Positions 13,901-41,630 of a DNA stretch of 64,000 nucleotides are shown here, in pieces. Each line of letters opens with the position of its first letter. Positions within the stretch are counted from its first letter, which is position 1. This DNA comes from Patescibacteria group bacterium UBA6017 (lineage in GTDB: Bacteria > Patescibacteriota > Saccharimonadia > UBA4664). The stretch covers positions 55,258-119,257 of the forward strand of contig DIZX01000011.1 in NCBI GenBank assembly GCA_002429485.1, written 5' to 3'. Under the pieces are notes generated by a model. It did no database searches, was not told the DNA's origin, and saw nothing but the letters and a program-made list of their open reading frames with translations. A program made the position numbers and the translations under genes.

Positions 13901-16900
13901 CATTATTTGAGGAACCGATATTATTGGCCTGGAGAGCAAAAGTACCAAAGGCATTATTGTAGCTAGCAGTGGTATTGGCGGTGAGGCTATAAGCGCCAAG
14001 AGCGTTGTTGTGTTGACCAGTGGTGTTGGATGTCAGTGCAGACATACCTGTAGCCGTATTGTCGAAGCCGGTCGTGTTATTCAGCAGCGCGCCCCGGCCA
14101 ATGGCGGTGTTCTCATAGCCAGTCTGGTTAAATTGGAGTGCTCGGGATCCGAGAGCGGTATTGTAATTGCCGGTAGTGTTGGACTGCATACTGTAGCTGC
14201 CGATGGCAGTGTTCTCGAAACCAGTCGTGTTAGCCTGGAGCGTGATGTAGCCCAGGGCGGTATTGCGGTAGCCGGTGGCGTTAGCTTGCCCCGAGTTGAT
14301 GCCTATGAAGTTGTTGCTTGGGTCACTGCTAGCCCGGACTTCGATGTTAGCTACTCCACTGGCGTTCTTAACGGTCAAAGCCGAGTTGGTAATACCGGTA
14401 ATCTGTTTGATGGTGACCCCCGAAATAGTCCCCAGCCAGCTGCCCGTCGGGGTGAAGGACAGTTTGTTGGTGTTAACAGTGTTGACGACGTAGCTGTAGG
14501 TGCCATTACAGTTGTCTCCGGTGATGGCTACACCACCCAAGGTCTGGCCACCAATGGCGGCAGTAACTGATTGAGATGAGTTGCCACAGGCCGTCGGCGT
14601 ACTACTGATATTGAAGCTAACTTGGTATGTAGCCCCACTGGTGATGGCGGCCGTGGTGTTGGTGATGGTGGTTGTACCACTAGTGTGGGTAGCTTGAGTA
14701 GAGGTGGTCACATCCCACCCAGTGGTAGTTCCCCATTGGGTGGCGAAGTTGTTAACCCCCATGAGATCCGCACCTAGGGTGGCTGTGTCGGTACCGGCGC
14801 GTACGGTGAGGGTTTGGTTGGTGGTGTCGACGTTTACTACCGGAACGGCGGTGGCATTTTGAATCTGGAAGGATGTGGCGGAGTTTGAAGCTGCCTTCTG
14901 AGTATAATCACCGTTGAGCGAGATACCGGAGCCCTGAACCTTGAACAGGTTGTCAACTCCGCCGTTGCTGCTCGAGATACCAAAATAAGTGTTAGCGCTG
15001 ATGTCCAAAGTCGACATCACTACTTCGTTCACCCCCAGAGAAGTGACGTTCGTGAATGCCACGAAGGTTGGCGTAAACCACGCCTGCTCCGTAGGCTCAA
15101 TTGTGACATATGTGTTCGAGGCACCAGCACTCGTAGAAGATGCCCGAACATCAATATAAGTTAGATCAAGTACTGTATCGTGTACTACTCTCATCCGGTC
15201 ATAGTCAGAAGTACCATTCTGGTTCAACAGAGATACAGTAGCCGTCGACCCCCAGTCAGCCTGAACTAAGAAGGATCTTGAGTTTGGGGTCATCGTACCG
15301 CCAATAGTCGTCAAAGTAACCTTAGCGGCAAATCGGCCATTGTTGGTCGCTCTTGAAGCAATCCGGTACCAATTGCCGCTAGTATTAGTCTGTGCCACAA
15401 CTCCCGTACTTATCCCCTGTGTCAACAGAATGTCGCTGCTAGTCTGAGCTAGCGTACGATATTTCAGTACGCCGCTATCGTTCGTAACGAACCCGGTATA
15501 AGTAGCGTCATCGGCTGTTTGGGGTACAATCACGCTTCCCGCTACAGTATCGACCGATAAAATGGAGGTACCGGCCGCATTTTGGACCCGGAAAGCAGTG
15601 GTTGAGTCATTTCCAGTAGTAGGCTTCACAAGGGCCGTTCCGGCCACCAGCAGGTTAATGTTGCGGGTGGTACTCCAGTCATTGAGGTTATTGGTCCCGG
15701 TCACGCCAAGCCGCACAGTAGAGTCACCAGCATTTGAGTTAGACCCTAGCCCCCAGGAGTTCATGCTGTTCCATTGTCCTACAATGCTGGCGTTACCGGC
15801 GGCATTGCTACTAGCATCGTTCAGGAGTAAGTAAGCCGGTGTAGCAGTACCAGTGCTATTAATTCCAATAACTACCTTATTATTGGAAGTATCAACTGCG
15901 AGAACATTAGCAGCCGAGGCATTTTGGACTTGGAATGCGGTGACGGAATTGGTATTACTCTTAGCAATAATCGAAGCGCTGGCGCTATTGGTGCTTAAGT
16001 TTAAGTTGCCAGTCCCGGCGTTTACGTTGACGGCCGTTGCACCAGTGGTATTACCAAGAGTAATCGTGCCGACATTAGCCGTTCCGATACTTATTGCCCC
16101 GTTCGCCGTCGCGCCGGTACCGGCATCAATCACTACGTTACCGCCGGTGCGGGTACCACTCGCCCCGGTAGCGTTGCCGCCCTGTAGTGTCAATACACCA
16201 CCGACGGCAGTGGTAGTACCGCTTTCGTTACCAGCCCTAAGGGTCAGGGCTGCTCCGGTAGCTGCCGCCGAAGTATTATTCCCCGGCTGAAACACCAAGG
16301 CCGTCGGAGCCGTCCCGGCCAAGGTGGTAATGTCGGCCGTTTGGGCTCCCGCCAAGGTTAAGGCTCCCAGGTTGTCTATTTTGAACTTCGACACTCCGTT
16401 GGCCTGGAGGTCTAGGAAAGCCCCCGAGGCAAACGAGCCCGAACCGTTGGCTACGTTCACTAGCAAAGCCGTGCCGGTGTAGGCTGAGGTGGACTGGCTC
16501 ACACTCAGTAAGGTAGCGCTGGTGGCCCCGGTATTTGAGGTGGTGATGTTGCCCGCATTCTGGGTTTGCTGAATATCTACCGCCTGAGCCGCCGTGCCAC
16601 TCGTCCCCTTCACGGTCAGACCCACTACGCTGTTGACTGTCGGCGTAATGGTGTTTTGGGCAGTCGAGGTGGGGGCTTGGAGAATACACGTGATACAGGT
16701 GTTGGCCGACCCGGCGTTCACCGCGTACACTGCACTGCCTATCCGGCGCATCGGCAGCATTTCCCCGTCCGGCGTACAGCTCGAGAAGGGCGTGCAACTG
16801 GAAGTCGTGTTGGCGCCGCCCGCGATGTTCGTAGACAGCCACAGCACCGGCTGGTTGAGGTCAATCCCCACTAAAGTCGTGATTGAGCCCAAATTCACGG

Positions 16901-17279
16901 AGAAGTAACCGTTCTTCACTGTCACTCCGTTACTGGCATTATTTAACCATTCTTCAGTCCACTGCAAAGTACCAGCCGTGCTCTGACAATCTGGCAGGGT
17001 TGCACAGGCACTATCGGTGGCCACCAACCCATCACCATTCTTGTAGATCTTGAACTGCATATTGTAATTTCCATCAGCAACAACGGCCCCAGCCGCGTTC
17101 AGCAGCCGACCCTGGTAGTTCACTTTATTGTTGATGCCAGCGCTCGGGGCCACGGCCTGCGCCGGACTAGCCGGCACTATCCCACTCAAGCCAAATAGCC
17201 CGACCAGTGTCAGGAGCGGTGCTATACGTGAGATAAATGTTTGGACTCTTCGCCTGAAAATTAGGCTCGAAATGATCAC
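10935..17279 (-). CDS. giant secreted surface protein A (2114 aa) with YadA-head-like 14-residue repeats
   Basis: Signal peptide. Its N-terminal domain is shared with giant B (QGRL.NA.G..V.DGNYN.QFKIY...GTLQWTEEWL...NLGSIT). It has a long run of 14-aa N-T-A-x-G repeats (NTAIGSYSMQSNTTGNYNTALGSRAL...) and repeated NVLAVDTSNNKVVIGI-type segments. Confidence 0.75.
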   Translation of the reverse strand: MIISSLIFRRRVQTFISRIAPLLTLVGLFGLSGIVPASPAQAVAPSAGINNKVNYQGRLLNAAGAVVADGNYNMQFKIYKNGDGLVATDSACATLPDCQSTAGTLQWTEEWLNNASNGVTVKNGYFSVNLGSITTLVGIDLNQPVLWLSTNIAGGANTTSSCTPFSSCTPDGEMLPMRRIGSAVYAVNAGSANTCITCILQAPTSTAQNTITPTVNSVVGLTVKGTSGTAAQAVDIQQTQNAGNITTSNTGATSATLLSVSQSTSAYTGTALLVNVANGSGSFASGAFLDLQANGVSKFKIDNLGALTLAGAQTADITTLAGTAPTALVFQPGNNTSAAATGAALTLRAGNESGTTTAVGGVLTLQGGNATGASGTRTGGNVVIDAGTGATANGAISIGTANVGTITLGNTTGATAVNVNAGTGNLNLSTNSASASIIAKSNTNSVTAFQVQNASAANVLAVDTSNNKVVIGINSTGTATPAYLLLNDASSNAAGNASIVGQWNSMNSWGLGSNSNAGDSTVRLGVTGTNNLNDWSTTRNINLLVAGTALVKPTTGNDSTTAFRVQNAAGTSILSVDTVAGSVIVPQTADDATYTGFVTNDSGVLKYRTLAQTSSDILLTQGISTGVVAQTNTSGNWYRIASRATNNGRFAAKVTLTTIGGTMTPNSRSFLVQADWGSTATVSLLNQNGTSDYDRMRVVHDTVLDLTYIDVRASSTSAGASNTYVTIEPTEQAWFTPTFVAFTNVTSLGVNEVVMSTLDISANTYFGISSSNGGVDNLFKVQGSGISLNGDYTQKAASNSATSFQIQNATAVPVVNVDTTNQTLTVRAGTDTATLGADLMGVNNFATQWGTTTGWDVTTSTQATHTSGTTTITNTTAAITSGATYQVSFNISSTPTACGNSSQSVTAAIGGQTLGGVAITGDNCNGTYSYVVNTVNTNKLSFTPTGSWLGTISGVTIKQITGITNSALTVKNASGVANIEVRASSDPSNNFIGINSGQANATGYRNTALGYITLQANTTGFENTAIGSYSMQSNTTGNYNTALGSRALQFNQTGYENTAIGRGALLNNTTGFDNTATGMSALTSNTTGQHNNALGAYSLTANTTASYNNAFGTFALQANNIGSSNNAFGDASMILNTSGSYNTAVGDDTLRNNTSGSYNTALGRRAGFQDSGGQFATGAALQNATALGAYAQVQASNSIVLGSVDTATNVGIGTTIPLNTFSVSPLDYSTGTAYQSTTNITGVGTSWTSAMIGEQFIFATGQTATILTVPTSTTMTTATSQTVSSNPGIAYRIHRIGLQVTSAGLVGIGTSSPASLLYVTGGIPAVSAGAGTAATAALTVLGPNGGATTSTAGATAGAGSAISFTTGNGGAATGASGGETGGAAGTLLLQGGNGGAAINGTGGAGSNINLTAGNGGNGSTLGGAGGIITLAGGSVGTGGAATAGYVRVRNASNSTTAFAVQNASGANVLSVDTGGNAVHIGSSSGSTTPAFLYMDDWTTTATGNASITGQWPSNANWGIGPNSNVTDQVLRMGITSGDAVNTWGTAYNLNLVVAGTALVQPNAGLDSATAFAVKNGAGSSTALNVDTTTSNVSIGNALVVGGVSAERTFTKSFTNGVANQKFDLYFAPQFAGEIEVTLTSNYINQDAGGAVQKTFYLGLNAGGTIWHNDSRYSDASGATSANFAISDVTWDATNSRYRIQIVHRVSTGNDVFIDVKAINGYPGSITAISENMNTSAVYTTDTTSFVKPTVSYIDNVGIGVADAGTSRLNVQGGDTILGGNVQIGSATAADATQNNLQLDSSNVFADTGTCNATTNQGALYYNTNTNTPSVRVCEDGSWSDVVTTKDTGLIMFGVVPDSGTTPGDWVGVNGTLSASGPCRIYLGSVNTKIRWTGCTAYSNGRRVVVPAQAADQTVTLTAGHFTHVCLNTASTNQPQLLDGTSETNNLPTFSTTAPILCLADLKVNGSKITAIYDTRTFTTTTKELVNNITTAAALGMIAQQTATLGAVTRPALTLGLASMRGVFIVTAGGTTANTINAIIATAGPAFVKADAGSIQQNLESSATTNAGYSVTAAAIPAPANGYGSLGIALSAFSSTCTAATDDCRGSVATVLNIR
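13780..14330. repeat. roughly 42-bp periodic coding repeats (the YadA-head-like / Hep_Hag-like 14-aa repeat array) inside giant gene A
   Basis: About 13 iterations of an N-[TY]-A-[LIA]-G ... [AS]-N-T-[TS]-G unit in the translation. Coordinates are approximate. Confidence 0.5.
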
Positions 17280-17372: not shown

Positions 17373-18329
17373 TCACACGCCCTGGACGTTCTGCTTTCTA
17401 AGCTTGCTAATCTCCCGCCGTTCGCCGAGCCAGAAGAAAATTACCATCACCAATGCCAACAGATACAGCGGCCAAGCTGTGAGTAAAATCCCCGGCAATG
17501 CCCCCAGTCCTTCACCCTTGGTTCCCCCCGATGAATTCACCGGGCCGTTCACTACCGTAATCATTTGCAGGAAAGCTCCGTTGCCCTGCGCATCCGTGAC
17601 CCGCAAAATCACCCGATACGTCCCCGGCCGATCATACACATGCTTACTTGCCACTTGACCGTCTGCACCCTGGCTCACCAGCGTGGTATTACCGTCGCCC
17701 CAATCCCAACTCACCGCGTACGGCGGAACACCGCCCACGATCGTCGCCGAACGACCCGCCTCCTGGCCTGGATTCACCCCGAGCACAGTAGTACTGACCT
17801 CCAGAAACAACTGACGTCCAGTGGAGCCGCCGGGTAAATTCAAGCTTGGTGCGTCATAAAACACGTTGACTGCCGCCGAATCGGGCCCAAACTGCCCCAA
17901 AGCATCCGACACCTTAGCAACCAGCACATTTGAACCATCAAATAAATCAATTAGTAACGAAAATGTACCATCGGTATCGCACGGCGTCACGCCGCCAAAT
18001 ACGCCATTCTTCGTAATATTCACAAACGTATTTGCCGGACATGTCCCGGAAACGGTAATCGGAATGGTGCCCGTACGAGTGCCGGTACGCGGGCTCACAA
18101 TCACCGCCGCCGTAGTCGGTGCCGGACCCCTCACTGTCCCGCTCAATCCCACCGAACCCGACTGCGGATTCACCGCCGGAGTTGCTGCCTGAGTGGCCAG
18201 GCTCGAACCGAGCAATAAAATGCCTACCAAAATCAAGGCAAAAAACAACCCGGGATACGAGGTATGGCGATGGTGCCGTACCTTCCCGGAATGTTCATGG
18301 GGCACGAGCTGTAGTAAACCGGCTTTCAT
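17373..18329 (-). CDS. PKD-domain membrane protein with two transmembrane helices
   Basis: N-terminal and C-terminal hydrophobic helices. PKD signature WDWGDGNTT...HVYDRPGTYRVILRVTDAQGN. The tail WLGERRE is shared with the ORF at 47016..47996. Confidence 0.65.
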   Translation of the reverse strand: MKAGLLQLVPHEHSGKVRHHRHTSYPGLFFALILVGILLLGSSLATQAATPAVNPQSGSVGLSGTVRGPAPTTAAVIVSPRTGTRTGTIPITVSGTCPANTFVNITKNGVFGGVTPCDTDGTFSLLIDLFDGSNVLVAKVSDALGQFGPDSAAVNVFYDAPSLNLPGGSTGRQLFLEVSTTVLGVNPGQEAGRSATIVGGVPPYAVSWDWGDGNTTLVSQGADGQVASKHVYDRPGTYRVILRVTDAQGNGAFLQMITVVNGPVNSSGGTKGEGLGALPGILLTAWPLYLLALVMVIFFWLGERREISKLRKQNVQGV

Positions 18330-18352: not shown

Positions 18353-19345
18353 TTACCGGTGTCGGCGAGCTTGCGCAATGATGTGATCGTTGTAGCGGCG
18401 CAAGGCCATCTTGAGTACGAAGAAGAGGACAATCAGGCCAATCAGTCCGAGCAGAATCAGCTTCCACGGAATTACCCAGAACCCGATTTTGCCCGTAAGC
18501 GTCTTGCCGCTCGAGTAGTTCAATACCAACGCCGCCGTATAGTGACCAAATAATTGCTTATTGCTCAGACTACTCTCAAACCGGCGCACACTGTCCGGTA
18601 GCACATTGCCACCCTTCTCATTCACCGCTACAGATCCAATTTTCTTACCAAACGTATCTTTAACTTCAATTGCCCCCGTCACCTTCTCGTGAACGCTACC
18701 CTCGTTGCGAACGCGCACCAGGAAGTCGACCGGGCCGTGTTCAAAAAAGCTTTGCTTACTAAACACTACTGGTGATACCTGCATACCAGAAGTAAATTCT
18801 GCCAAACTCACCTTTTCGGTGATAATACCGCTGACTTTGAGCAAGATCAACGCCCCGACACTAGCTGACAGAGCCACGCCTGCGCCCGCTAGGTTCGGAG
18901 GCACGGCCGTAAACCGCACAACCCCAAAGTGACCGCCCGGCTCTGCGTTAGCCGGCACGACGATCTTTATAGTGGTGGTCTTGAGGTCCCCAGGGGCCAA
19001 TTGTAGGTCAGGTACGGTCTGGATCCAATATTTCAATGAAAAGTGCGTTGAACCAGTTTCGTCGAGGAGTAATTTCGGTTGGCCGCTCTCGTCTGATCCG
19101 GCACCAAAATCATCCGCCTTCCCTTTGGCTATCAACTCCCCTTGAGTCACGTTGCGCACACGGATACTGGCCGTCACAGTCTGGCCTGGGTTAGCTGACA
19201 ATTCCATCACCGGCGGAGAAATCTCCAGACCCTGACCAGGCGAACCAGCATCAGCCGCATTAGCTGTAGCAGCCCCAAACAAAGGACCGGCCGCCAATAG
19301 GCAGGTCATCAATCCGAAAACAGCATTCTTGTACCACTTACTCAT
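18353..19345 (-). CDS. membrane-tethered protein with two Ig-like domains (Ig-TM1); candidate chaperone-like or DUF916-like component
   Basis: Signal peptide, about 260 aa of predicted beta-rich ectodomain, then a C-terminal transmembrane segment and basic tail (WVIPWKLILLGLIGLIVLFFVLKMALRRYNDH...). The motif GGHFGVVRFTAVPP followed by the alternating-hydrophobic VALSASVGALILLKV recalls the F1/G1 region of PapD-type chaperones. The architecture also matches WxL-locus DUF916/DUF3324 proteins. Confidence 0.6.
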   Translation of the reverse strand: MSKWYKNAVFGLMTCLLAAGPLFGAATANAADAGSPGQGLEISPPVMELSANPGQTVTASIRVRNVTQGELIAKGKADDFGAGSDESGQPKLLLDETGSTHFSLKYWIQTVPDLQLAPGDLKTTTIKIVVPANAEPGGHFGVVRFTAVPPNLAGAGVALSASVGALILLKVSGIITEKVSLAEFTSGMQVSPVVFSKQSFFEHGPVDFLVRVRNEGSVHEKVTGAIEVKDTFGKKIGSVAVNEKGGNVLPDSVRRFESSLSNKQLFGHYTAALVLNYSSGKTLTGKIGFWVIPWKLILLGLIGLIVLFFVLKMALRRYNDHIIAQARRHR

Positions 19346-19384
19346 TGCAATTAGTGTATAGCATAAGTTTAATAATACGAAAAG

Positions 19385-20416
19385 TTAGAAGCTTGCTGTA
19401 CAGATATAAGTCATCGTCGAAGTATAAACGCCTGCCGCTTGCGCGCCGCCGATATTCACGATGTAGCTCGATGTAAAAGTATTCGCATTTGTCGGTAAGC
19501 CAGCCTGAGCCACACTATCGCCGCTGCCAAAACGATACGAATTCGCCGTACCATATGTCCCGCTGAACGTTCCACTCCCAACACCTGTCGGGTCGGCCCC
19601 CACCGCCGGAGATGCATTAGAACGTAAGTTTAATCCAAACTGACTCGTACCTATCGCGCTGACCGTTTGCGCAGCTAAAGCCGGTATTGTATTCACCCCA
19701 GACGCCAAAGTGCTGCCGTTTATCGTCACCGTATAGCCGTTCGCGGCATTAGTCTGAGCCTGCATAACGCTCGTGCCGCTTCTCGTCAGTACCGGCGAGA
19801 AATCTCCAAAATCAATAGTATTGCCAGCTACCGTAGTACAATCAGGACCGATTGAGGTTCCAACGCAGAATACTAATATCTCAGGGGTCACCCCGGTAAG
19901 CTGTACTGGCTGCGCCGTACTCATAGCTACCGTTCCGGTATCCGTCACACCCGTCGCTCCATCACCGCCCGTGTAAGTCGAGATGCGCACGAAGTATGAA
20001 GTATTTGTCGCTGATGGATTCGTAATCGTGCCTAACGTATAGCTCAGCGCTGTCCCAGAGTTTAGATTAACTGCACCTCGCGTAATGTACGGTGCCCCAT
20101 TAGCCCCATTCACTATCGCGAATCCCACTGCTCCGCTTTGAGCCGTAAGTGTGGCACTCGTCGTTACTACACCGGCCGGCATCGCGCAGACGCCCGTAGG
20201 CGCCGAACATAACTCAAATTTAATCGAGCCGATATTGGCAGTCGTAGCAGTGGTCGCATTCACGGTATAGTTAGTTGTCGCGCCCTGAGCGCTCGAACCC
20301 ACCTGCACATTGCGCGGGGAGAGCCCGGCAGCTGATGTACTCAAAGGGGCTAATATCAGCGCCAGGACGGCTATCCGCCGTAGGCTGTGCGAGGAAGTTT
20401 GGATTAAATGCTTCAT
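19385..20416 (-). CDS. secreted tandem-domain SCPU/Csu-pilin-like protein (P1)
   Basis: Signal peptide. Two modules, each with a Cys pair (IKFELCSAPTGVCAMP; LVFCVGTSIGPDCTTVAGNTIDFGDFSPV) and a terminal strand motif (YFVRISTY; AQAAGVYTSTMTYICTASF). These resemble the CsuA/B features TGCTVGG..NKFGTLNFG and AQGDYKDTLLVTVNF. Confidence 0.6.
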   Translation of the reverse strand: MKHLIQTSSHSLRRIAVLALILAPLSTSAAGLSPRNVQVGSSAQGATTNYTVNATTATTANIGSIKFELCSAPTGVCAMPAGVVTTSATLTAQSGAVGFAIVNGANGAPYITRGAVNLNSGTALSYTLGTITNPSATNTSYFVRISTYTGGDGATGVTDTGTVAMSTAQPVQLTGVTPEILVFCVGTSIGPDCTTVAGNTIDFGDFSPVLTRSGTSVMQAQTNAANGYTVTINGSTLASGVNTIPALAAQTVSAIGTSQFGLNLRSNASPAVGADPTGVGSGTFSGTYGTANSYRFGSGDSVAQAGLPTNANTFTSSYIVNIGGAQAAGVYTSTMTYICTASF

Positions 20417-20443
20417 GCTATGTTTGTTTCCGTTATGCTTGTT

Positions 20444-21532
20444 TTAGAATGTCGCGGTACAGATATAAGTTAATGTTGCCGTATACACCCCTGCGGCCTG
20501 ATCGCCGCCAACGTTTACAATGTAGGAATTTGTGAATAAGTTAGTATTCGTGACCCCGCTCACGCTCGCCACTGTATCCCCCGTAAAGTGTCTAAAGGCA
20601 TTAGCCGTATTGTAACCACCCACACCGACAGAAGTTCCGGGGCCCGATACATTGTTACCGACAGTTGGCGTGGCATTAGACTTCACGTTCGTCCCGAACT
20701 GGCTGGTTCCGGTAGTTGAAGTACAGCTCGGCGAACAGCCAGCCGAATTCAAAGACTGCGTCCCCATAGCCGTAATTGTATTCGCCCCACTCGATAGGGT
20801 TGTACCCGTGAGTGTAATCGCATATCCAAAGCCAGCATTCGTACTAGCACTCATCAGACTAGTCCCGGTATTGGTCGCGACCGGGGAAAACACCCCAAGA
20901 GATACTGCTGATCCAGTCATATTACTGCAATCCGTCCCGCTAGTACCCACACAAAAGACTAAACTCTCTGGCATTGTACCGCTCACTACGATCTGGTTTG
21001 CCGTCGACACAGCAACTGAACCAAAATCCACCTCAACTGTCCCTGATGAATCCGAATAAGTAGTGATACGCCCATAGAACTGCTTATTCGAGGCTGACGG
21101 ATTATGCACGTTCTGGAGCGTTAATGTCACCGTGGTACTAGTGTTTATGTTTTGGGGTGTGCCATTAGTTATCCTGAATGCATTAGTGGTTGGCGCTGGC
21201 GGTGTGCCGGTGCCGGCGGTAAAACCAGATATACCGCTCTGGGCAGAAATAGTAGCAGTATTTGAAGTAAAGCTGACTCCATTGGAATCGCCCGAGTTAA
21301 CGCAACCTATCGCTTCAAGCGGTGAGTCACACATCTCGAACTTAATTGCGCCTATATTCCCCGTCGTGCCGGGCTTAAAGCCAAACGAGTACGTTGTCAC
21401 TGCGCCCGCAGCTGAGCTACCGAGAGTAAGTACCCGGCTCGTTGGCGTCACAGCCTGAGCGGAAAAAGGTGAAGCCAAAGCAAGCAATAGTGCTATCGAA
21501 CTCGTCCGAGCCAGGAGCGTTTTAATTTTCAT
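20444..21532 (-). CDS. secreted tandem-domain SCPU/Csu-pilin-like protein (P2)
   Basis: Paralog of P1. KFEMCDSPLEAIGC and LVFCVGTSGTDCSNMTGSAVSLGVFSPV; the C-terminus is DQAAGVYTATLTYICTATF. Confidence 0.6.
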   Translation of the reverse strand: MKIKTLLARTSSIALLLALASPFSAQAVTPTSRVLTLGSSAAGAVTTYSFGFKPGTTGNIGAIKFEMCDSPLEAIGCVNSGDSNGVSFTSNTATISAQSGISGFTAGTGTPPAPTTNAFRITNGTPQNINTSTTVTLTLQNVHNPSASNKQFYGRITTYSDSSGTVEVDFGSVAVSTANQIVVSGTMPESLVFCVGTSGTDCSNMTGSAVSLGVFSPVATNTGTSLMSASTNAGFGYAITLTGTTLSSGANTITAMGTQSLNSAGCSPSCTSTTGTSQFGTNVKSNATPTVGNNVSGPGTSVGVGGYNTANAFRHFTGDTVASVSGVTNTNLFTNSYIVNVGGDQAAGVYTATLTYICTATF

Positions 21533-21608
21533 TTCTATTTGTACCCATATTCATAATGCTTATGTAAACATTACTACTCCGTGATCGATTGAGTCAAGGA
21601 CAGTTGAG

Positions 21609-22595
21609 CTAGCGAGCCCGAGACTTCGCAATAATGTATCGGTTGTATCTACGGACACCCAGAGTAACAAGGTACACCGTAACGATTATGCCAACCAAGA
21701 CAAGTAACAATAATTTCCATGGTATTACCCAGAACTCGATTGTGTTATCCACAATCTTGCCCGTGGCATAACTCAAAGCCAGGTGAGCCGAATATCTCCC
21801 AAACAACTGCTTCTGATTGAGCGTTTGCGTGAATCTGCGGATACTATCCGGCAAGACGCTCCCTCCTTGCTCGTCGACCTTAACGGTCGCAACTTTGTGC
21901 CCCATCCAGTCCGTAACATCGATGCTCCCACCTGGACGCTCGTGAACGCTCCCCTCGTTCTTCAGCCGGACCAAAAAGCCAACAGGTCCATATTCGAAAA
22001 ACGATCCTGTTACATCTTTTTTGGTTTTAGTATTCGTTTGATACGCGCTGAACTCAGCCAAGCTCATTTTATCGGTAATGGCCCCCGACACCTTCAGTAA
22101 TATCAATGACCCCACACTGGCCGAAAGCGCAACACCTGTACCGTCAACACCAGGCGCAACTCCAGTGAATCGAACAACCCCGAAATGACCACCGGGCTCA
22201 GCATTTTTAGGTATGGTGATGGTGACAGTCGTCGTCTTCAACTCTCTCGGAGCCAACTTCAGATCAGGAACCCCCGAAATCCAGTATTTCAACGAATACC
22301 GTGTTGCTCCGGTTTCATCGAGCAATATATGGGGGGCACCGTCTTCGCTGGTTCCCGCTCCAAAATCATCCGCCTTGCCCTTAGTTATCAGCGTGGCCGC
22401 AGTAACATTTCTAACCCGGATATTCGCAGTAATTGTCTGCCCGGGATCTGCGCTAAGCTCTATCACCGGCGGAGATATCTCGAGCCCCTGGCCGCCGGTA
22501 GCTTGAGCGTTTACGGGCAATGCTACTGCCAAAGGCGATAGACATAATGCAGCTCCCAGGACAAAAGCGCTCCAACCCAGTAATCTTTTATTCAT
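21609..22595 (-). CDS. membrane-tethered protein with two Ig-like domains (Ig-TM2), paralog of 18353..19345
   Basis: Signal peptide (start MNKRLLGW at 22595). Conserved GGHFGVVRFTGVAP...VALSASVGSLILLKVSG and a C-terminal transmembrane segment with basic tail. Confidence 0.6.
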   Translation of the reverse strand: MNKRLLGWSAFVLGAALCLSPLAVALPVNAQATGGQGLEISPPVIELSADPGQTITANIRVRNVTAATLITKGKADDFGAGTSEDGAPHILLDETGATRYSLKYWISGVPDLKLAPRELKTTTVTITIPKNAEPGGHFGVVRFTGVAPGVDGTGVALSASVGSLILLKVSGAITDKMSLAEFSAYQTNTKTKKDVTGSFFEYGPVGFLVRLKNEGSVHERPGGSIDVTDWMGHKVATVKVDEQGGSVLPDSIRRFTQTLNQKQLFGRYSAHLALSYATGKIVDNTIEFWVIPWKLLLLVLVGIIVTVYLVTLGVRRYNRYIIAKSRAR

Positions 22596-22884: not shown

Positions 22885-24057
22885 CTAAAAGTTGCCTGTG
22901 CAGATAAATGTCTGCGTCGCAGTGTAGGCACCAGCCTTCGTAGTAGCAAGCACGTTGGCTACGTACGCCATCGTGTAGAGCGTGTCCGCGGTTGGCTGTG
23001 TTGCAGAAGCAATCTTCACTCCCCCTGCGGTACTGTAAGAGAACGTGTTGGCCGTAGCGTAGGTACCAAAGGCCGTGCCGGATGCGCTACCGGTTGCACC
23101 CACACCTACTGCAGGCGTCGTGTTGGTCATCAGGTTGAAGCCGAACTGCTCGGCCGTGGCACTGTTGTTCACCGCACCACCCACCGGGAAAGCCGTAATT
23201 GTATCAGCCGTTGTATCCGTAAATGATGAGCCGTTATAGGTAATATTATAACCGTTCAGACCATTTGTCGCCGCGGTCATCTTTGCGATACCGGTCGAAG
23301 CTGCACCATTGGCCATCGGGTTTGGTGACAGCGTCACTGTTGAACCGGTAAAGGTTCCACAAGTCTCGGGTGTACCCGAAGTTGCACCGGAAGTCCCGAC
23401 ACAGAAGACGAGGTTTTCTTGAACGTTCGCGGTTACCGATATCTGCTGAGTTGTGGCCATGGCGATACCACCGAAGTCACGCACGGTCGTAGGAGCTACA
23501 CCCGTACCTTCGTTGTAGGTCGTAATCTTCATGTAATATTGAACATTAGTCGTCGTCGGATTTTTGGCCGCGTTGATCGTACAAGTCCAAGTATTGCCCG
23601 CCGTTGCGGACGCAGATGTGCGAGTCATATACAGAGTATTTGCGGTCGAAGCTTGACCACTCACACCCAAGACAAAGCTTGCTGCGTTCGTACCAGTACA
23701 ACCGGTGGTGGTTGCTGGGCCCGATGTGAAGCTTTCACCAGTGGAGTTACCGGAGTTTACGCAAGACACTGCCGCAAGCGGAGAATCACAGATTTCAAAT
23801 TTAATCGTACCAACGTTCGCCGTCTGGCCAATATTGAATACTGAAGTTAACGTTACGCCCGTTGCCGCCGGCAGCGAGCTGCTCGGAGTTACACTACGAG
23901 TATCAAGCACACCGGCGGTAGAAGCCAACGCCGGGATCGGAGCCAGGCTCACGAGAATAAGCGAGACCGCACCGATCCAAGAAGCAGCTCGCTCGAGGAA
24001 ACTCAGCCTTGTCTTCGCATTTGAAGTTAATTTCATTATTTTTTTAGCACCTTTCAT
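22885..24057 (-). CDS. secreted tandem-domain SCPU/Csu-pilin-like protein (P3)
   Basis: IKFEICDSPLAAVSC, QYYMKITTYNEG, LVFCVGTSGATSGTPETC; the C-terminus is KAGAYTATQTFICTGNF. Confidence 0.55.
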   Translation of the reverse strand: MKGAKKIMKLTSNAKTRLSFLERAASWIGAVSLILVSLAPIPALASTAGVLDTRSVTPSSSLPAATGVTLTSVFNIGQTANVGTIKFEICDSPLAAVSCVNSGNSTGESFTSGPATTTGCTGTNAASFVLGVSGQASTANTLYMTRTSASATAGNTWTCTINAAKNPTTTNVQYYMKITTYNEGTGVAPTTVRDFGGIAMATTQQISVTANVQENLVFCVGTSGATSGTPETCGTFTGSTVTLSPNPMANGAASTGIAKMTAATNGLNGYNITYNGSSFTDTTADTITAFPVGGAVNNSATAEQFGFNLMTNTTPAVGVGATGSASGTAFGTYATANTFSYSTAGGVKIASATQPTADTLYTMAYVANVLATTKAGAYTATQTFICTGNF

Positions 24058-24118: not shown

Positions 24119-24928
24119 CTAGTATGTCCCCGTAGCCACCAGCGTCATACCGCCCCCGTAAGTGCCTCCGGGCGAGACACTACTCATATTTGCCATAAAA
24201 CTAATCGTGTAGTCTGTTTCCCCGGAACTACTAGGAGCTGAGGCAATAGTATCCCCCGAAAAATACCGGTACGCATCAGCCGTTCGATAAGGCAAAGGAA
24301 TAACCACTGAAGGGTTAGATAAGCTAAAGGCTGAACTGGGAATAGGCACAGGGTCGGCTCCAACCGCAGCCGGAGAAGCATTCAATCTTAGGTTGATCCC
24401 AAATTGTTCCACTCCGTTGTTCGATGCGCAGGTCGGCGAGCAGCCGGTACTGTTCGCACTTTGTGAACCCATCCCTGCTAAAGCATGCCCGCCGTTACTT
24501 GGCGGAGAGCCAACTATTTGCACCACATAACCAAAAGAAGTGTAATCCTTAACACTGAAGGTTGCCGTAGCTGTCTTGGCTGTCACTAATGAGAGTGCGC
24601 CAAACGCTACTAATGACGTATTCACTATCATCGTCAGGCTCGGTTGTGCCGTGGTATCGAACCCGGATTTAGTCTGGAAGCTTGTCGACGCGCCATTCCC
24701 CACCGCGTTCTCGCCGAGACTCGATCCCCCGTCGTCAGCACTTGGATTGAAAGTAAAGTTGCCTCCGGTGGAGGTTGAATTGAACTGCCCGTTGCCGCCC
24801 ACTTCTCCCTCGACTATTCGATAGCTCGTCGAAGTCGACGACGGATCTCCGATCGCGCCACTAGCCGTGCCGGAGATACCCAGTACCAGGGCCATCGAAA
24901 TTACAAGCTGTCTGTTCCACCTTCTCAT
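24119..24928 (-). CDS. secreted single-domain SCPU/Csu-pilin-like protein (P4)
   Basis: Signal peptide. STGCSPTCASNNGVEQFGINLRLNASPAAVGADP parallels P1 and P2. The C-terminus GGMTLVATGTY ends in an aromatic residue. Confidence 0.5.
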   Translation of the reverse strand: MRRWNRQLVISMALVLGISGTASGAIGDPSSTSTSYRIVEGEVGGNGQFNSTSTGGNFTFNPSADDGGSSLGENAVGNGASTSFQTKSGFDTTAQPSLTMIVNTSLVAFGALSLVTAKTATATFSVKDYTSFGYVVQIVGSPPSNGGHALAGMGSQSANSTGCSPTCASNNGVEQFGINLRLNASPAAVGADPVPIPSSAFSLSNPSVVIPLPYRTADAYRYFSGDTIASAPSSSGETDYTISFMANMSSVSPGGTYGGGMTLVATGTY

Positions 24929-25010: not shown

Positions 25011-25039
25011 GAGTGGGACTAATTAACAGTGAGCTAGCC

Positions 25040-25963
25040 ATGCCTCCGGGCACTCCCCCGCCAATTCTTCAACTCAATAAACCCAAGCCCAACCTCGGTG
25101 GGAGCTGGAAGCGCCTCAACGGCCGGGCCAGCCTGGTTGCCAGTATCACTTCCCTCTTTGTATTTTTGATGGTCGTCGGCGGCGTGGGCGGCTACTACTT
25201 TGCCCAAAGCCGCAAACCTGCGCCTACTGCCACCAAAACCACCATTTCGACCCTAACCCCCGAAGAACTCGCTAAACTCACCGAGGTCGGCTCCAATCTC
25301 GGTAACTCCGGCCAAACGCTAAATATCGGCGCTAACGCCTTATTCCGAGGCACCGCCAACGTCACCGGTGATCTCACGATCGGCGGCAAGCTCAACGCCA
25401 ACGGCCCTGTGACCCTCAGCCAGCTCAACATCACCGGCACCACCGCCGCCACCGGCCTCAACGTGGGCTCCAACCTCAACGTCACCGGCAACACCACTCT
25501 GCAGCAATCATTGAGCGTGGGCGGGCTCACCACACTGGGCGGCGGGCTCAACGTCGGCGGCGCGGCCAGCTTCAATTCGATCAACGCCACTACCTTGTCG
25601 GTCAGCAACATCAATATCTCCGGCCCCCTGCGCATCAGTCACCTCTCCACCCAAGGGCCCACGCCCACTTTCGTCACCAGCACCAACCTTGGCGGCGGCG
25701 GCACGGGCAGCATTAGCGGCAATGACACCGCCGGCACCGTCAACTTCAATACCGGAGGTGGCACGGCCGCGGGCGTGCTTGGCACCATCACGTTCCGGGC
25801 TGGCTACTCCGGTACCCCGCATGTATTGCTCTCGCCCATCTCCGGTGCCGCCGCCAGCACCCCCGTGTACGTCACCCGCACCACTGGCGGCTTCCAGGTG
25901 CGCACCGACTCCGCTCCCCCCGCCGGCGCCATCCTAAGCTTCGACTACTTCGTCACTCAGTAG
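25040..25963 (+). CDS. type-II membrane protein with beta-helical repeats and a conserved C-terminal domain
   Basis: Start taken at ATG 25040 (the ORF track uses GTG 25013). N-terminal transmembrane segment LVASITSLFVFLMVVGGVGGYYF. Repeats LNVTGNTTLQ / LNVGGAASF. The C-terminus ...FDYFVTQ is paralogous to the ORF at 48655..49779 (...FTYWVVQ). Confidence 0.55.
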   Translation: MPPGTPPPILQLNKPKPNLGGSWKRLNGRASLVASITSLFVFLMVVGGVGGYYFAQSRKPAPTATKTTISTLTPEELAKLTEVGSNLGNSGQTLNIGANALFRGTANVTGDLTIGGKLNANGPVTLSQLNITGTTAATGLNVGSNLNVTGNTTLQQSLSVGGLTTLGGGLNVGGAASFNSINATTLSVSNINISGPLRISHLSTQGPTPTFVTSTNLGGGGTGSISGNDTAGTVNFNTGGGTAAGVLGTITFRAGYSGTPHVLLSPISGAAASTPVYVTRTTGGFQVRTDSAPPAGAILSFDYFVTQ

Positions 25964-26510
25964 CCTGGCCTCCTGGCAACTCCGAGTTCTTGCGAGAATT
26001 GCAAAATATGGCGTAGTTATGTGGCCCGATATCAGTCAAGCGCATTACTGCGGACGGATCACAAAAACGATTCGGCTCGCCTAGATACGCCCGATAACTC
26101 GACCATTCATATTCATCGATCCCCCGAATCCCAACGGGATTCAAATGAATGTACCGGCTTAAGTTCATCAAATCAGCATTGTCACGCACATACCTATCTC
26201 TATATCTGCCCTGAAATATATGGCCGACCTGGCCATAATGCTTGTTGTAATACTTCACATATCCGAGCGCCAGCGACGTCATACATTTCTGTATCGATCC
26301 CCTGCCATCCTGTCTCAGCAGTAAATGGAAATGATTCGGCATCAGGCAGTATGCCGCCACAGTCACCGAATGCTCAGCAGCCGCATCCCGCAACATCCAC
26401 AGAAACTTCTCATAATCCCGTGCATCATGATAAACCGCTTCCCTATGGTTCCCACGATTATATATATGATAAAAATGAAAATCTTCGAAATTTCGGCGTG
26501 GCGTAGGCAT
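25953..26510 (-). mobile_element. IS200/IS605-like Y1 (HUH) transposase, or REP-associated tyrosine transposase-like gene
   Basis: HUH motif (YCLMPNHFHLLL) and Tyr motif (GHIFQGRYRDRYV...YIHLNPV). Start at M17, ATG 26510. The 3' end overlaps the 25040..25963 gene by 11 nt. Confidence 0.6.
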
Positions 26511-26599
26511 ACTCGTATCTCCAGCGCCTACAATACCGAACAAATACCATAAATACAACTTCTGTCAAAAACTCTGAGTTGCAGGGCGGCAGCTACCCC

Positions 26600-29500
26600 C
26601 TACTGCGCCGTATCCAGCAAACAGCCGTCCGTTACCACGCGGTTACAGCCCGTATTCGTAAACGACGCCCCGTGCCGCAACCGCCGCGTCGGGTTCGGAT
26701 GGTAGTAAATGTCGACGTCTTGAGCCACACTGACCGTATCCGGGAAGCCTCCGGTATTCGAATCGTCAATGATCAAGAAGAGATAGTAGTTGAACGCAAT
26801 ACCCACGTCCGTACCCGTGCCATCCAGTGCCTTCAAGAAGTAAAACTTGGTCGCGTAGGCCGGGCTAATGAATTGCGGCACACCCCAGGTAGTGGTTCCC
26901 ACAGCGGCCGTTCGCATGGTAATAACGTACTGACCGCTGCCATTCACCTGCACCAGCGACGGCGCAGTGTTGACCTCAGTGTTAAACATCTTGGAGTAGT
27001 GCCCGATGCGTGCTTGAGCCTTCTGCCCGGCATACTCCGCCCCATTGTTTGCTGTCGTACAAGCCGAACCGCTTAGCGTACAGCCTCCAACCTCATAAAA
27101 GAACCCGTCCGAGAAGACACCCCCGCCATGAGCGTGGTTTGAACCCGCAATCATGCCCGAGTTCGACGCCCGGTAGAGATTTCCAATCGTGCCGTTAGAA
27201 TTGATCGCGGCATAAAATACATCCAATCCCGAGCTCTCCGAACCAAAGAAGTACATGTACCCATTGGCCGCTGCGGCCTGCCTGAACCTCCCTTTCTGAT
27301 CTTGCTCATTGGTATATTTCCACGTACCGAGCGACCCATCGGTATTGATAGGCGCAAATTGCACATCACTCAAATTATTCGTGCCATCATACCCGCCTAT
27401 CACGTACAACTTTGAATTGTAGGCCAACACGCTCTGATCTTGCCTAGCGGTGGAAAAAGTACTGCCATCCGTAGTCCAACTCAGCAGCAATCCGTTTTCA
27501 CCAATCTCACTAAACATCACACTATTCTTCAGAGTCGCGCCGTTGATCCCCCCTGCCGCATATACCCGCCCGTTCATCAATGTCGCACCAAACCCATGTC
27601 GAGCCTCGGGCATCGACGTTTCGGTGCGCCAGGTACCGACATCGCCGGTAGCGCTCAGTGGCGCGGAAATGACGTCCGCGGTATCAGCAGCGGTAGACGA
27701 CGAACCCCCAATAAGGAATATCCTGCCTACGTAGGTTATCGCCGCCCCGGATATGCGCGCCTGACCCGACGACAACTGAGTGTCGCTACCGCTCGAAAAT
27801 GAACCAAGCGACCCGCTCGCGCTAATTGCCGCGTGCTCAACCTTCGTCGACCAGACCGTGCAAACGCCGGCGCTATAGGTAGTGCAGCCACCAACCACAT
27901 ACAGATTTCCGTTATATGCCACCGTCTGTGCATCGGCCCGGGCCGTTAGGGTACACGCGCCCGTACACCCTGAGGTGCTGGTCCAGGGGTTCGTATTGGC
28001 AGCCGTGGTTCCAAACAATCCGCTTCCGCCGTTCCGGACCACGAAGTACTCCGATGTCGCCAGGTAGCTACCCGTAGCACACGGCGGCACGCCGGTTCCG
28101 CTACACCCTCCGACCGTATATAGCCGGCCGTCATATGCAGCTACACCTGCTCCCCACCGCGCCGCGCTCAAGGTTTTTGAGCAAGTCGTCCAAACCCCCA
28201 CCGCTCCCGTCGATCCATCCAAAGCCGCACATGAAATCACGTTCGAAGGCGCATTGCCGGCGTTGTCCGTCATACCCCCGATGGAATAAATGACGTTGTT
28301 ATGAATCACTACCCCAATGAAAGTATGCGGCCCCGACGGCAAAGTGTTCGTCTCTGTCGTAACGCTCCCGACCGCTCCAGTCGTGCTGGTTAGCGGCGCG
28401 CGGTAGACATCAGTATAAGAGGTTGTCCCATTTCTTCCGCCAGCAATATACAGATATCCCGCATATGCCGCCGCTCCCAACCCCCGCTTGCCGGTGCTGC
28501 CAAAACTGTAAGTTCCACTGCCGCACCACAGCGTACTGCTAACGCCACAACTATTTGGATCAGCCAAACTTCCTCCCGAGATCTTGGTATACTGCACGTC
28601 GTTGTAATAGTTGGTGCCGTCATAGCCGCCCATCAGATAGATATAATTGCCCCACACGGCGCTAGCCAGATACGCCCGGCCGCTGATGAAGGCATGCGAG
28701 GCCGTATTGTCAGCCGACCAGCTCAGGTTACCATTGCTGGCCGTTTGGGTCGCCACCAACAAGGTATTGGCATAATTGTCCGCCGGGGCAGTCGTCTTCT
28801 GCAGCCCGCCAATGTAGTAAAGTTTGCCTCCATAACCCACCATCGTTCCGAATGTCCGCCCGGCGTTCATTCCCGTAGATGCCGGTAAAGTCCCCATGCC
28901 GGTAGTGGTCCAAGCACCCAGAGACCCGTCATCATTTATTTTGGCAGCGTCCACCGTAGCCACGTAGGTCCCACAGTTGGTACCATTGCAACCTCCGGCG
29001 GCGTATAGGTAACCGTTGTAGGCGGTGGTTGCAACTCCGGCCCTGGCCGCTGTCACGCTGCCGCCGTTGTTGGCCGTGGGGCTGGTAGTGTCGCCGGGAG
29101 TGGTATTGATAATTGCGTACTGCGAATCCCCGAGGGCAGTCGTACAGTTGTTGGCGTTGGTCGGCTCTGCGGTACACCCGGCTATCGAATATATAACACC
29201 GTTATATGACGCCACACCATTGAATAATCGCGCTGTCGTGAAGCTCGTCGACGTATCCCATGCACCAATCGTCCCATCGGCATTAATGACCGCGTAGTAG
29301 GTGCTGTTTAGTAAGCCCGAACAGGCAGGCGCCGTGGTACACCCACCCACGATATAGAGGTGGCCCTGTTCGGCTACTACTCCCCCATTGCGCCATCCGG
29401 CAGCCAACACCGCCGTAATAGCCGTTGTAGTGCCCCAAGTACCTAGCGTGTAATCCGGCGCGATAGACACATACTGCACATCGGTCAGCGCGCTCGTGCC

Positions 29501-39726: not shown

Positions 39727-39790
39727 ACAACCACACAGTTACACCCTAAGCATAGCCGTTTTCAGATATAAACACAAGAGTTTTGAGGCT

Positions 39791-40663
39791 ATGTACTATA
39801 CTAACGTTATGCTTAATCTATATCTGAAGAATCACCTTAAATTCCTGTCCGTACTTGCCCTAACTCTTTGCATAAACACCGCATCATTTGCCGCCGAACC
39901 TACGCCGTTGCCGTCCCCCTCCGCCGCTCCCGGGGCAACCGAAGCCGTCACCGACTTCACCTCTACCGCTGAGCTTACTCATCAAGGTACGCTCGATGTC
40001 CACGAGCACATTACCTACGACTTCGGACCTGCCGATCCCCACACCATCAACCACCGAATTCTGATCGGCTACTCCGACGACCAGGGCAACCTCCTGCAAA
40101 GCAAATTCGTACTGCTCTCGAGCACCCAAAATGACCAACCTCTAGCCCTTCACCCCGACATCAATGGCACCGTCGCCAACATCAACCTTCCACCGGGCAG
40201 CAGCTCCGGTCCCCGCCGTTACTCACTGCACTATACCCTCTCGCCAGCGGTACTGGCCGGGCCGGATGCAGATGTGTTTAAATACAGCGTTACCGGCCTC
40301 GGCTGGACCGTCCCCATCAACCAGGTATCCATCGTGCTCACCACTCCCGGACTGACCCCGCAGACCCTCACCTGCTACACTGGTGCCGGTGGTAGCACTA
40401 CCAGCAGCTGCCGAGTTAGCGAACATGGCAGCACCTCCTCAATCGTCACCGACGCCGTTCTGACGCCAGGCGAAAGCCTTAGCCTCTACACCGGCTTCCC
40501 CATGCATTCGTTCACCGACTATTACAACTCCTGGAACGTCCAGTCACTTTGGCCGTTTCTAGTCGCAGCCATCGCTATCATCGCAATGTTGATAGCCATC
40601 CCCCTGCTACTGCGCCGCCGCAAACACCAGACCGACATACCTGATTCAGAGCCGGAAAAATAA
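39791..40663 (+). CDS. secreted protein with C-terminal transmembrane anchor and basic tail (DUF2207-like architecture)
   Basis: Signal peptide MYYTNVMLNLYLKNHLKFLSVLALTLCINTASFA. C-terminus LWPFLVAAIAIIAMLIAIPLLLRRRKHQ. Confidence 0.45.
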   Translation: MYYTNVMLNLYLKNHLKFLSVLALTLCINTASFAAEPTPLPSPSAAPGATEAVTDFTSTAELTHQGTLDVHEHITYDFGPADPHTINHRILIGYSDDQGNLLQSKFVLLSSTQNDQPLALHPDINGTVANINLPPGSSSGPRRYSLHYTLSPAVLAGPDADVFKYSVTGLGWTVPINQVSIVLTTPGLTPQTLTCYTGAGGSTTSSCRVSEHGSTSSIVTDAVLTPGESLSLYTGFPMHSFTDYYNSWNVQSLWPFLVAAIAIIAMLIAIPLLLRRRKHQTDIPDSEPEK

Positions 40664-40673
40664 CCGTCTGCGT

Positions 40674-41630
40674 TTAGCGGCGTCGCCGCTTTAGCCAGCC
40701 CCTCGGACGACCCCACAACCACCAGGCCAAACCGGCCGCTGCCAGCAACCCCGCGCCTATCACCAGCCAGATTATAATCGCTCCGGTATACACAAAGTCC
40801 TGTTCAAAACTACGCATCTGCGAAGTGCCGTCGTACCGGTAACTCGTCACTATCCGGTACCGGCCCGGCCACCAAGCCCGTGCCACGGGGATGAATTCCG
40901 TAGTGTAGTTTCGGTAGGTTTCCGGCAATATTACTTTGCTATCTTCATTGATTGCGCCACGCACAACCTCCTTGCCGAATGGGTCTTTCACGCTCACAAT
41001 ACCGCGTGGCACCACGTGCACGTTACCGGTATTACGATATCGCTGGGTTGCTTCATTTGGCAGCCGCCACCAACTCGCGTTAGATTTTTGGCTCTGCAAA
41101 GCTAGTTCCTGCTTTAACCCGCCTTCTTTGGTGACCAGTAGTAAGCTCGACAATACTTGTTTTACCCCCACGCTATCGCTGCGGCCGCCGCCAGCCGTAA
41201 GTGCGGTAGCGAGCAATGCGCCATAATGCCCGCCTGGCGCGAGGGAATCTTTGTTGATAATCGTTACCGGTATCGTTACTGACTTACCTGCCGGTACACT
41301 CAACGCGGTCTCAGGCAAAACCATCCAATTAGCTAATCCGTATTTATGATCTAGCTCGGCTGTCGCTGTCCCCAGAAAAGCCACCCCGCCATCTTCATCC
41401 AGGCTCCCAAAATCCAACATGCTCAATGCAAACGCCTGGTCTTGCGCGTTATGATTCGTTAACTGAACGTCATATGTCACCCGGGACTGATCCTTGGCGA
41501 TATCGATCTGCCCATATGCCGGCGACACCGCAAAGCCGCTGTTTGCTAGTGCGTATGCTCCGGCTCCGGACCACAATCCGCTCCCGAGCACGCAGACGGC
41601 CGCCGCAAGGCGCCCCCCATTACGCCACAC
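40674..41630 (-). CDS. membrane-tethered protein with two Ig-like domains (Ig-TM4)
   Basis: Signal peptide. GGHYGALLATAL...VGVKQVLSSLLLVTKEG. C-terminal transmembrane segment plus RPRGWLKRRRR. Confidence 0.55.
   Translation of the reverse strand: MWRNGGRLAAAVCVLGSGLWSGAGAYALANSGFAVSPAYGQIDIAKDQSRVTYDVQLTNHNAQDQAFALSMLDFGSLDEDGGVAFLGTATAELDHKYGLANWMVLPETALSVPAGKSVTIPVTIINKDSLAPGGHYGALLATALTAGGGRSDSVGVKQVLSSLLLVTKEGGLKQELALQSQKSNASWWRLPNEATQRYRNTGNVHVVPRGIVSVKDPFGKEVVRGAINEDSKVILPETYRNYTTEFIPVARAWWPGRYRIVTSYRYDGTSQMRSFEQDFVYTGAIIIWLVIGAGLLAAAGLAWWLWGRPRGWLKRRRR

Follow-up and report, generated by a model that had tools for sequence, protein, structure and literature searches.

The Pam pili of Candidatus Mycosynbacter amalyticus and the pam operon that encodes them have recently been described (bioRxiv 10.64898/2026.03.03.709456, version June 2026). 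Cryo-electron microscopy of PamA and PamB revealed that the linker between the two domains of a subunit is a donor strand, which completes the truncated immunoglobulin-like (Ig-like) C-domain of the adjacent subunit (10.64898/2026.03.03.709456). PamC and PamD carry a C-terminal transmembrane (TM) helix, and the preprint, which reports AlphaFold complexes of both, proposes that donor-strand exchange is carried out by these membrane-anchored chaperones with no trans-envelope machine; PamR is proposed to terminate and anchor the fibre, and the filaments to make host contact in episymbionts (10.64898/2026.03.03.709456). PamC (WP_260763277.1) and PamD (WP_260763284.1) were so named because their AlphaFold models resemble FimC and PapD. 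Here we analyse 64,000 nucleotides of chromosomal DNA from an uncultured member of the Saccharimonadia (Candidate Phyla Radiation (CPR)/Patescibacteria), hereafter the window, to which all coordinates refer. It is a second, two-module example of this already described kind of system, and contains four minus-strand genes, which we call Ig-TM: A1 and A2 in module A, and B1 and B2 in module B. We propose, at a probability of roughly two in three, that the Ig-TM proteins are the counterparts of PamC and PamD, namely type I membrane proteins with a PapD-like/WxLIP-like ectodomain, which, judging from structural models and analogy, most likely act as tethered donor-strand-complementing chaperones for the adjacent pilins.

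The other described proteins that bear on this proposal are the WxLIP proteins of the WxL loci of Enterococcus, Listeria and Lactiplantibacillus, which consist of DUF916 (PF06030), DUF3324 (PF11797) and a TM helix. They are described as stabilizing and anchoring WxL proteins; a disordered hairpin of DUF916 is predicted to become a strand that runs in parallel with a WxL strand, filling a gap in the WxL sandwich, and a crystal structure of a WxLIP-WxL complex (9i25) was released in January 2026. The link by sequence and solved structure between Ig-TM and the WxLIP/DUF916 proteins of Gram-positive surface-protein loci, presented below, is absent from the Pam preprint, which mentions neither WxL nor DUF916 (10.64898/2026.03.03.709456). 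In our literature search we found no paper linking WxLIP to donor-strand chaperones or PapD.

A2 (18353-19345, minus strand; 330 amino acids) is a putative membrane-anchored chaperone of the PamC/PamD type, with a signal peptide, two Ig-like domains, a C-terminal TM helix and a basic tail. The other Ig-TM genes of the minus strand encode A1 (21609-22595; 328 amino acids from an ATG, the mechanically called open reading frame (ORF) extending to a TTG at 22640), B1 (41631-42698; 355 amino acids, with an extra insertion in domain 2) and B2 (40674-41630; 318 amino acids). The four proteins are homologous and align over their full length, A1 being 61% and the module B proteins 25-33% identical to A2, and each of the four begins with a signal-like helix and has, at the C-terminal end, a hydrophobic helix and then a basic tail. 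An earlier note, written from the raw sequence, had pointed to a segment shared by the four proteins that it likened to the F1 and G1 strands of PapD. Translation places the segment where the note had put it: in A2 it is GGHFGVVRFTAVPPNLAGAGVALSASVGALILLKVSG (residues 137-173; 18827-18937, minus strand), which by DSSP and column conservation comprises the penultimate strand, a conserved loop and the last strand of domain 1. The A1 version is GGHFGVVRFTGVAPGVDGTGVALSASVGSLILLKVSG, with 'AP' in place of 'PP', and those of module B are VGVKQVLSSLLLVTKEG and IAGATAVLVLLEAR. The alignments indicate that what the four proteins share here is due to the common descent of paralogues and to conservation within the family, and is not a chance motif.

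The family itself is large. Among 1.84 billion cluster representatives, a profile of the four Ig-TM proteins matched 11,416 (E<=1e-3), of which 1,846 reached E<=1e-30. A hydrophobic stretch lies within the last 70 residues of most of the 149 representatives that were retrieved, about 100 of which contain a GGHYG-type motif, usually near residue 130. Two further traits of these proteins were seen in passing. The cytoplasmic tail after the TM helix (18359-18466, minus strand, and its equivalents in the other Ig-TM) contains a motif [KR]-Y-[NK]-x-x-[IVL]-[IVL] (RRYNDHIIAQARR), kept in 43 of 46 close orthologues and 38 of the 149 distant representatives; its conservation hints at an intracellular partner or sorting signal. 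Domain 2 of B1 contains about 37 inserted residues (residues ~245-285, GYPAFQDVLVNGSVKIDNKGHQVQALSWNAGGNNPFS) that are missing from the other three proteins. This insertion recalls the extra beta-hairpin of PamD, absent from PamC, but the hairpin of PamD is said to be at the hinge.

An AlphaFold2 model of the 330-residue A2 (46-sequence alignment; mean predicted local distance difference test score (pLDDT) 86.3) contains a signal helix (residues 2-18), domain 1 (strands between 40 and 171), domain 2 (179-291) and a TM helix (294-329) with the basic tail. The order of TM helix and basic tail suggests that the ectodomain is outside the cell, and the C-terminal membrane anchor that the earlier note had ascribed to these proteins is present in the model. 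According to DSSP, GGHFGVVRFTAV (137-148) forms the penultimate strand of domain 1 and SVGALILLKV (162-171) the last one, while GTGVALSAS between them is a highly conserved loop modelled at lower confidence (pLDDT ~67). In the predicted structure the topological position of these strands and the loop is that of F1, G1 and the loop between them in PapD-type chaperones. The two Ig-like domains adopt a bent arrangement that can be superposed on solved chaperones, and the C-terminal TM helix following them gives the protein the layout of WxLIP, which is also its nearest solved fold.

Fold searches ranked WxLIP of Enterococcus faecium (DUF916 family; 9i1y and 9i25) first, ahead of every chaperone-usher chaperone (Foldseek E 2-3e-10, TM-score 0.56-0.59). 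The chaperone-usher chaperones came close behind, with alignments covering both domains: Foldseek gave E 3.9e-9 for CfaA (TM-score 0.55), and 1e-8 to 3e-7 for DraB, FimC, CsuC, Caf1M, YadV and SafB, and the scores listed in the fold searches were 11.3 for YadV (153 residues aligned), 11.3 for FimC, 11.2 for CfaA, 11.2 for SafB, 10.7 for CupB2, 10.5 for CsuC and 10.3 for EcpB. The chaperone idea of the earlier note would have been in difficulty had the best matches been exclusively WxLIP/DUF916 or unrelated Ig domains; a WxLIP does head the ranking, but chaperones of the chaperone-usher type follow it closely. When the Ig-TM and pilin profiles were searched against PDB sequences, no meaningful match came up.

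Pfam comparisons point in the same direction as the first-ranking fold. Three of the window Ig-TM match PF06030 (WxLIP_PGBD, formerly DUF916) at 13.0-17.3 bits (17.3 for A1), below the cut-off of 27.3, and one has no match; the matches span nearly the full profile and end at the GGHFGVVRF strand. Among 64 diverse relatives, which we refer to as the wider family, 26 match PF06030 at E<=0.01 (best E 2.4e-8), and one full-length relative (P0313, E 2.8e-61) reaches 32.4 bits, above the curated cut-off of 27.3. These profile matches suggest that the N-domain of Ig-TM belongs by descent to the DUF916/WxLIP lineage; at the sequence level it does not fall within the PapD family. PF06030 is the only Pfam family to which Ig-TM can be linked, and the order of domains and the C-terminal TM helix are also those of WxLIP. 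Ig-TM differ from WxLIP, however, in several ways. Identity to 9i1y is only ~12-14%; PF11797 (DUF3324) was not detected in domain 2 by Pfam scans of the window Ig-TM and their relatives; the NQIDKxxxYFDLK motif is not evident, domain 1 of Ig-TM starting instead with GLEISPPVxEL; and the partners encoded nearby are polymerizing pilins, not WxL-domain proteins, with no WxL Pfam match among the neighbours of the Ig-TM genes.

Chief among these neighbours are two-domain proteins that resemble the Pam pilins. Module A encodes pilin-like proteins of 343 amino acids (19385-20416; C-terminal residues ICTASF), 362 amino acids (20444-21532; ICTATF) and 390 amino acids (22885-24057; ICTGNF), and a short one of 269 amino acids (24119-24928; ATGTY). 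The pilin-like proteins of module B are of 366 amino acids (42708-43808; VGAGNF, linker TIVITAVVPP), 386 amino acids (43917-45077; VGAGNF, linker TIVVSAVVPP) and 355 amino acids (45233-46300; IASASF); all of these genes are on the minus strand. As the earlier note had observed for these proteins, which it called SCPU-like, all seven end in an aromatic residue, six in Phe and one in Tyr, and the C-terminal Phe of the pilins is invariant. In an AlphaFold2 model of the 343-residue protein (pLDDT 88.9; 900 homologues), a signal peptide is followed by an N-terminal sandwich of nine strands (35-166), then by an unstructured linker (residues 167-180, AQPVQLTGVTPE) and the C-domain, the layout that cryo-electron microscopy showed for PamA and PamB. 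The 269-residue protein aligns with the pilin C-domain only and has no N-domain, as described for the tip pilin PamT, and together with its place in the gene order this makes it a candidate tip.

The last partner is a protein with tandem Ig-like domains of the PKD/Glucodextran_B type and a C-terminal TM helix, hereafter PKD-TM (module A: 318 amino acids, 17373-18329; module B: 326 amino acids, 47016-47996; both minus strand). By its Pfam matches and synteny it is a candidate for a PamR-like anchor and terminator, and, as in PamR, there is an extra N-terminal segment, which in module A is GSVGLSGTVRGP and is conserved in the related loci inspected. The module B counterpart, AYAVSAVVPGP, closely matches the linkers TIVVSAVVPP and TIVITAVVPP of the module B pilins, a sequence resemblance that is clear. 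When PKD-TM proteins were scanned with donor cores, the best match fell in the N-terminal segment in 29% of pairs and in an internal Ig strand in 21%, so that, as a general property, mimicry of a donor strand by the N-terminus of PKD-TM is suggestive only.

The association of these genes is conserved. We analysed 80 Saccharimonadia loci fetched via their Ig-TM protein, with 10 kb flanks (the M. amalyticus locus is not in this sample). A pilin gene lies within 10 kb of the Ig-TM gene in 78 of them, and a tip-like gene in 72, standing first in the commonest gene orders. PKD-TM directly follows Ig-TM in 74 loci, and a gene for a giant protein comes after PKD-TM in 44, giving a recurring order of tip, one to five pilins, Ig-TM, PKD-TM and giant; two Ig-TM genes are present in 18 loci. 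More distant relatives, one of them at 24.7 bits to PF06030, also adjoin pilins, ending in ..GNF or ..ASF. One more distant genome (GCA_040384345.1, JAWVGX010000651.1) has both module types in a single locus, where a module B-like pilin ending in GAGNF and two Ig-TM genes are followed by module A-like pilins, Ig-TM and PKD-TM; this locus adjoins ParA/ParB, signal peptidase and LytR, the same type of neighbourhood as in the window.

The following mechanism would account for these data. The pilins, the tip protein and Ig-TM, all of which have signal peptides in their sequences, would be exported by Sec. The C-domain of a pilin would emerge as an incomplete Ig-like fold, whose groove Ig-TM would fill with the loop and last strand of its domain 1 (residues ~152-171), a segment chosen by analogy with G1 of PapD and with the hairpin by which WxLIP is predicted to complete the WxL sandwich. 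The chaperone would then give way to the linker strand of the following pilin, so that the fibre would grow from its base, while the proximal subunit would stay tethered to the membrane via the TM helix of its chaperone. Such a tether may replace both periplasmic retention and the usher in a cell that has no outer membrane, which is also the model of the preprint (10.64898/2026.03.03.709456). PKD-TM would donate its N-terminal strand, resembling the pilin linkers, to terminate and anchor the fibre, and the two chaperone paralogues of each module probably serve different clients.

Several points weigh against this reading. The chaperone role given to PamC and PamD in the preprint is itself computational only, coming from AlphaFold and Foldseek (10.64898/2026.03.03.709456), and the likeness of Ig-TM to them is one of fold, architecture and context, not of direct sequence comparison. 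The segment that would be donated is placed by analogy, not from a model of a complex. When each chaperone was scanned with the 9-residue donor cores (pilin linker and PKD-TM N-terminal strand) of its own locus, the best matches scattered over several beta-strands, at reference position 156 in 24 of 250 cases and at positions 142, 127, 123 and 168 in 22, 18, 17 and 16; as beta-strands look alike, the suggestion that the loop between the last two strands (GVALSASVG) mimics the pilin linker or the PKD-TM strand gains no support either way. Neither PapD_N (PF00345) nor PapD_C (PF02753) was matched by the four Ig-TM (E<=1) or by the 64 relatives (E<=0.01), and hhalign comparisons of the Ig-TM family were insignificant both with FimC (probability 0.4%) and with six aligned chaperones of E. 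coli K-12 (probability 0.7%, E 0.076). Finally, the pair formed in PapD by Arg8 (A1 strand) and Lys112 (G1 strand) has no conserved equivalent in the Ig-TM family: the A strand (positions 38-52) has no conserved basic residue in the close orthologues, the wider family or module B. The one basic residue kept family-wide is R254 in domain 2, found in 46 of 46 close orthologues and 63 of 64 members of the wider family, and in module B.

The sequence results just given bear above all on a stronger claim, that Ig-TM are true members of the PapD family by descent, with the I-P-P end of F1, the invariant Lys of G1 and an Arg/Lys cleft that binds the C-terminal carboxylate of the pilin. Two-domain structural matches to many chaperone-usher chaperones and the invariant C-terminal Phe of the pilins speak for it, as do, among the close orthologues, a basic residue (K/R170) close to where the last strand of domain 1 ends in 43 of 46 and the prolines P149 and P150 in 42 and 43 of 46. 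In the wider family, however, position 170 is basic in only 20 of 64 proteins, P149 is present in 24 of 64 and P150 in 15 of 64, and in module B position 170 is T or E and the prolines are not conserved. Since K170, the PP and an equivalent of Arg8 are not conserved family-wide and the hhalign scores (0.4-0.7%) are insignificant, the F1/G1 'signature' is an analogy of position within a shared fold and not evidence for the PapD family; with WxLIP ranking above every chaperone-usher chaperone as well, we regard this stronger claim as very unlikely. What survives of the claims in the earlier note is therefore the place of the segment, in the last two strands of domain 1, and not its sequence resemblance to PapD, nor the Lys, the I-P-P or the Arg/Lys pair. 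Its chaperone idea retains the fold, the functional analogy and the donor-strand type of the neighbouring pilins. As the preprint proposes membrane-anchored PamC/PamD chaperones, the note had arrived, independently and from raw sequence, at essentially the same model.

The ranking of WxLIP also favours a different explanation, in which Ig-TM are WxLIP-like stable scaffolds that permanently hold a surface protein or the base of the pilus by strand insertion, and perhaps bind peptidoglycan, without catalysing or priming polymerization. WxLIP/DUF916 supplies both the nearest of the solved structures and the one Pfam signal; WxLIP is also described as stabilizing and anchoring WxL proteins, and it crystallizes in complex with a long WxL protein (9i25). 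Yet the neighbours of Ig-TM are donor-strand pilins of clear polymerizing architecture with no WxL Pfam match, PF11797 is not detected, and the anchoring role is already suited to a separate protein, PKD-TM, with its TM helix and donor-like N-terminal strand, so that we consider a purely scaffolding role unlikely, if less so than strict membership of the PapD family. It could also be argued that Ig-TM are surface proteins of a generic Ig-fold kind, for instance adhesins or proteins for host contact, which look like chaperones only because the beta-sandwich is common; weak Pfam matches of Ig-TM and their relatives to fn3_5, NPCBM_assoc and FixG_C would fit this. But the synteny with pilin genes is strict, in 78 of 80 loci and in distant relatives, the matches to chaperones and WxLIP extend over two domains rather than one, and the conserved loop and strand lie at the position used for strand insertion by PapD and WxLIP, which leaves this explanation highly improbable. 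Tethered chaperones of the PamC/PamD type thus remain our preferred interpretation of Ig-TM.

Compared with the Pam system, Ig-TM share with PamC and PamD a Saccharimonadia host, a Sec signal, two beta-sandwich domains with a predicted FimC/PapD-like fold and the C-terminal TM helix. As in the pam operon, there are two copies per operon, and they likewise stand among donor-strand pilins of two domains, a candidate tip pilin with a single domain, a tandem-Ig protein anchored by a TM helix and a giant protein that may be the 'tail fibre-like' neighbour of the preprint. In contrast to M. amalyticus, where the order inferred from accession numbers is T-A-E-D-R-B-C, the order here is tip-pilin-C-pilin-pilin-C-R; this genome has two divergent modules, A and B; and no pilin is as large as PamA (55 kDa).

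In chaperone-usher chaperones (PapD, FimC, Caf1M, CfaA, CsuC, SafB, DraB and YadV), as in Ig-TM, a loop joins the last two strands of domain 1 at the F1-G1 donor position, and the pilins resemble chaperone-usher subunits in their incomplete Ig-like C-domain and aromatic C-terminus. Beyond the lack of sequence-level homology and of a conserved Arg8/Lys112 pair, Ig-TM differ from these chaperones in being membrane-anchored, through TM helix 294-329 and the basic tail, rather than soluble in a periplasm. There is no outer membrane, and no usher-like gene was found among the part of the window ORFs that was scanned against Pfam. In addition, the strand that the pilins donate is the linker between their two domains and not, as in chaperone-usher subunits, an extension at the N-terminus. 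TasA fibres, archaeal bundling pili and cannulae are extracellular donor-strand filaments of monoderm and archaeal cells that lack an outer membrane. To our knowledge, they are described as polymerizing without a dedicated PapD-like chaperone, whereas the Ig-TM operon has a conserved, dedicated partner with two domains and a membrane anchor.

The two modules are co-directional, both lying on the minus strand. In module A, from 24928 down to 10935, the order is 269-residue pilin-like protein, 390-residue pilin-like protein, A1, the 362- and 343-residue pilin-like proteins, A2, PKD-TM and a giant secreted protein of 2114 amino acids. Module B runs from 47996 down to 40674 and encodes PKD-TM, a 243-residue membrane protein, the pilin-like proteins of 355, 386 and 366 amino acids, and finally B1 and B2. 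Housekeeping genes surround the region (RF-2, HtrA, LytR, ParB, IleRS, FtsZ and FtsA). Exact copies of window proteins were found on metagenome contigs, and the few named homologues, as well as most of the named related loci, belong to Saccharimonadia, Saccharimonadales or Saccharibacteria.

The giant protein of module A (10935-17279, minus strand; homologues in 44 of 80 loci), which has no Pfam match, and a second one of 2629 amino acids (31837-39726, minus strand) have similar N-terminal regions, INxxxNxQGxLxNxxG...YNxxFKxY...LQWTExW, and may correspond to the 'tail fibre-like' neighbour of the Pam preprint. The 243-residue protein of module B (46288-47019, minus strand) is acidic at its N-terminus and has a single TM segment and an extracellular domain; no Pfam match was found for it, and neither module A nor the 80 loci contain a counterpart. 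Immediately upstream of either module, on the opposite strand, lie genes for paralogous proteins of 316 and 427 amino acids (25013-25963 and 48496-49779, plus strand) with an N-terminal TM segment, LNVxGNxxL-type repeats and a conserved C-terminus FxYxVxQ; they have no Pfam matches, and homologues are present in 12 of the 80 related loci. A gene for a DUF2207 membrane protein (39653-40663, plus strand; E 2e-18) is convergent with module B, directly after B2. Between the modules are a 1533-residue Kelch-repeat protein (26600-31201, minus strand; Kelch_1 E 4e-36), found in only 6 of the 80 related loci, and, between module A and this protein, an IS200-like Y1 transposase (25953-26558, minus strand; PF01797, E 9e-12).

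Chaperone-usher assembly has been seen as an invention of Gram-negative bacteria, dependent on a periplasm and on an usher in the outer membrane. It is conceivable, though we hold it to be somewhat doubtful, that the CPR Ig-TM (PamC/PamD-type) proteins and Firmicute WxLIP form one large and ancient superfamily of membrane-anchored strand-donating chaperones of monoderms, of which the diderm PapD-like chaperones would be the soluble, usher-coupled branch. If so, chaperone-assisted donor-strand assembly would be a mechanism general to cell envelopes, older than the monoderm/diderm divide or spanning it, and a single machine would have two classes of clients, WxL proteins and Pam pilins. The link to WxLIP also offers the crystallized complex 9i25 as a template for experiments on strand donation. 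A tethered chaperone-like protein beside the strand-exchange pilins of CPR bacteria suggests how fibres could form without an outer membrane and without ATP outside the cell.

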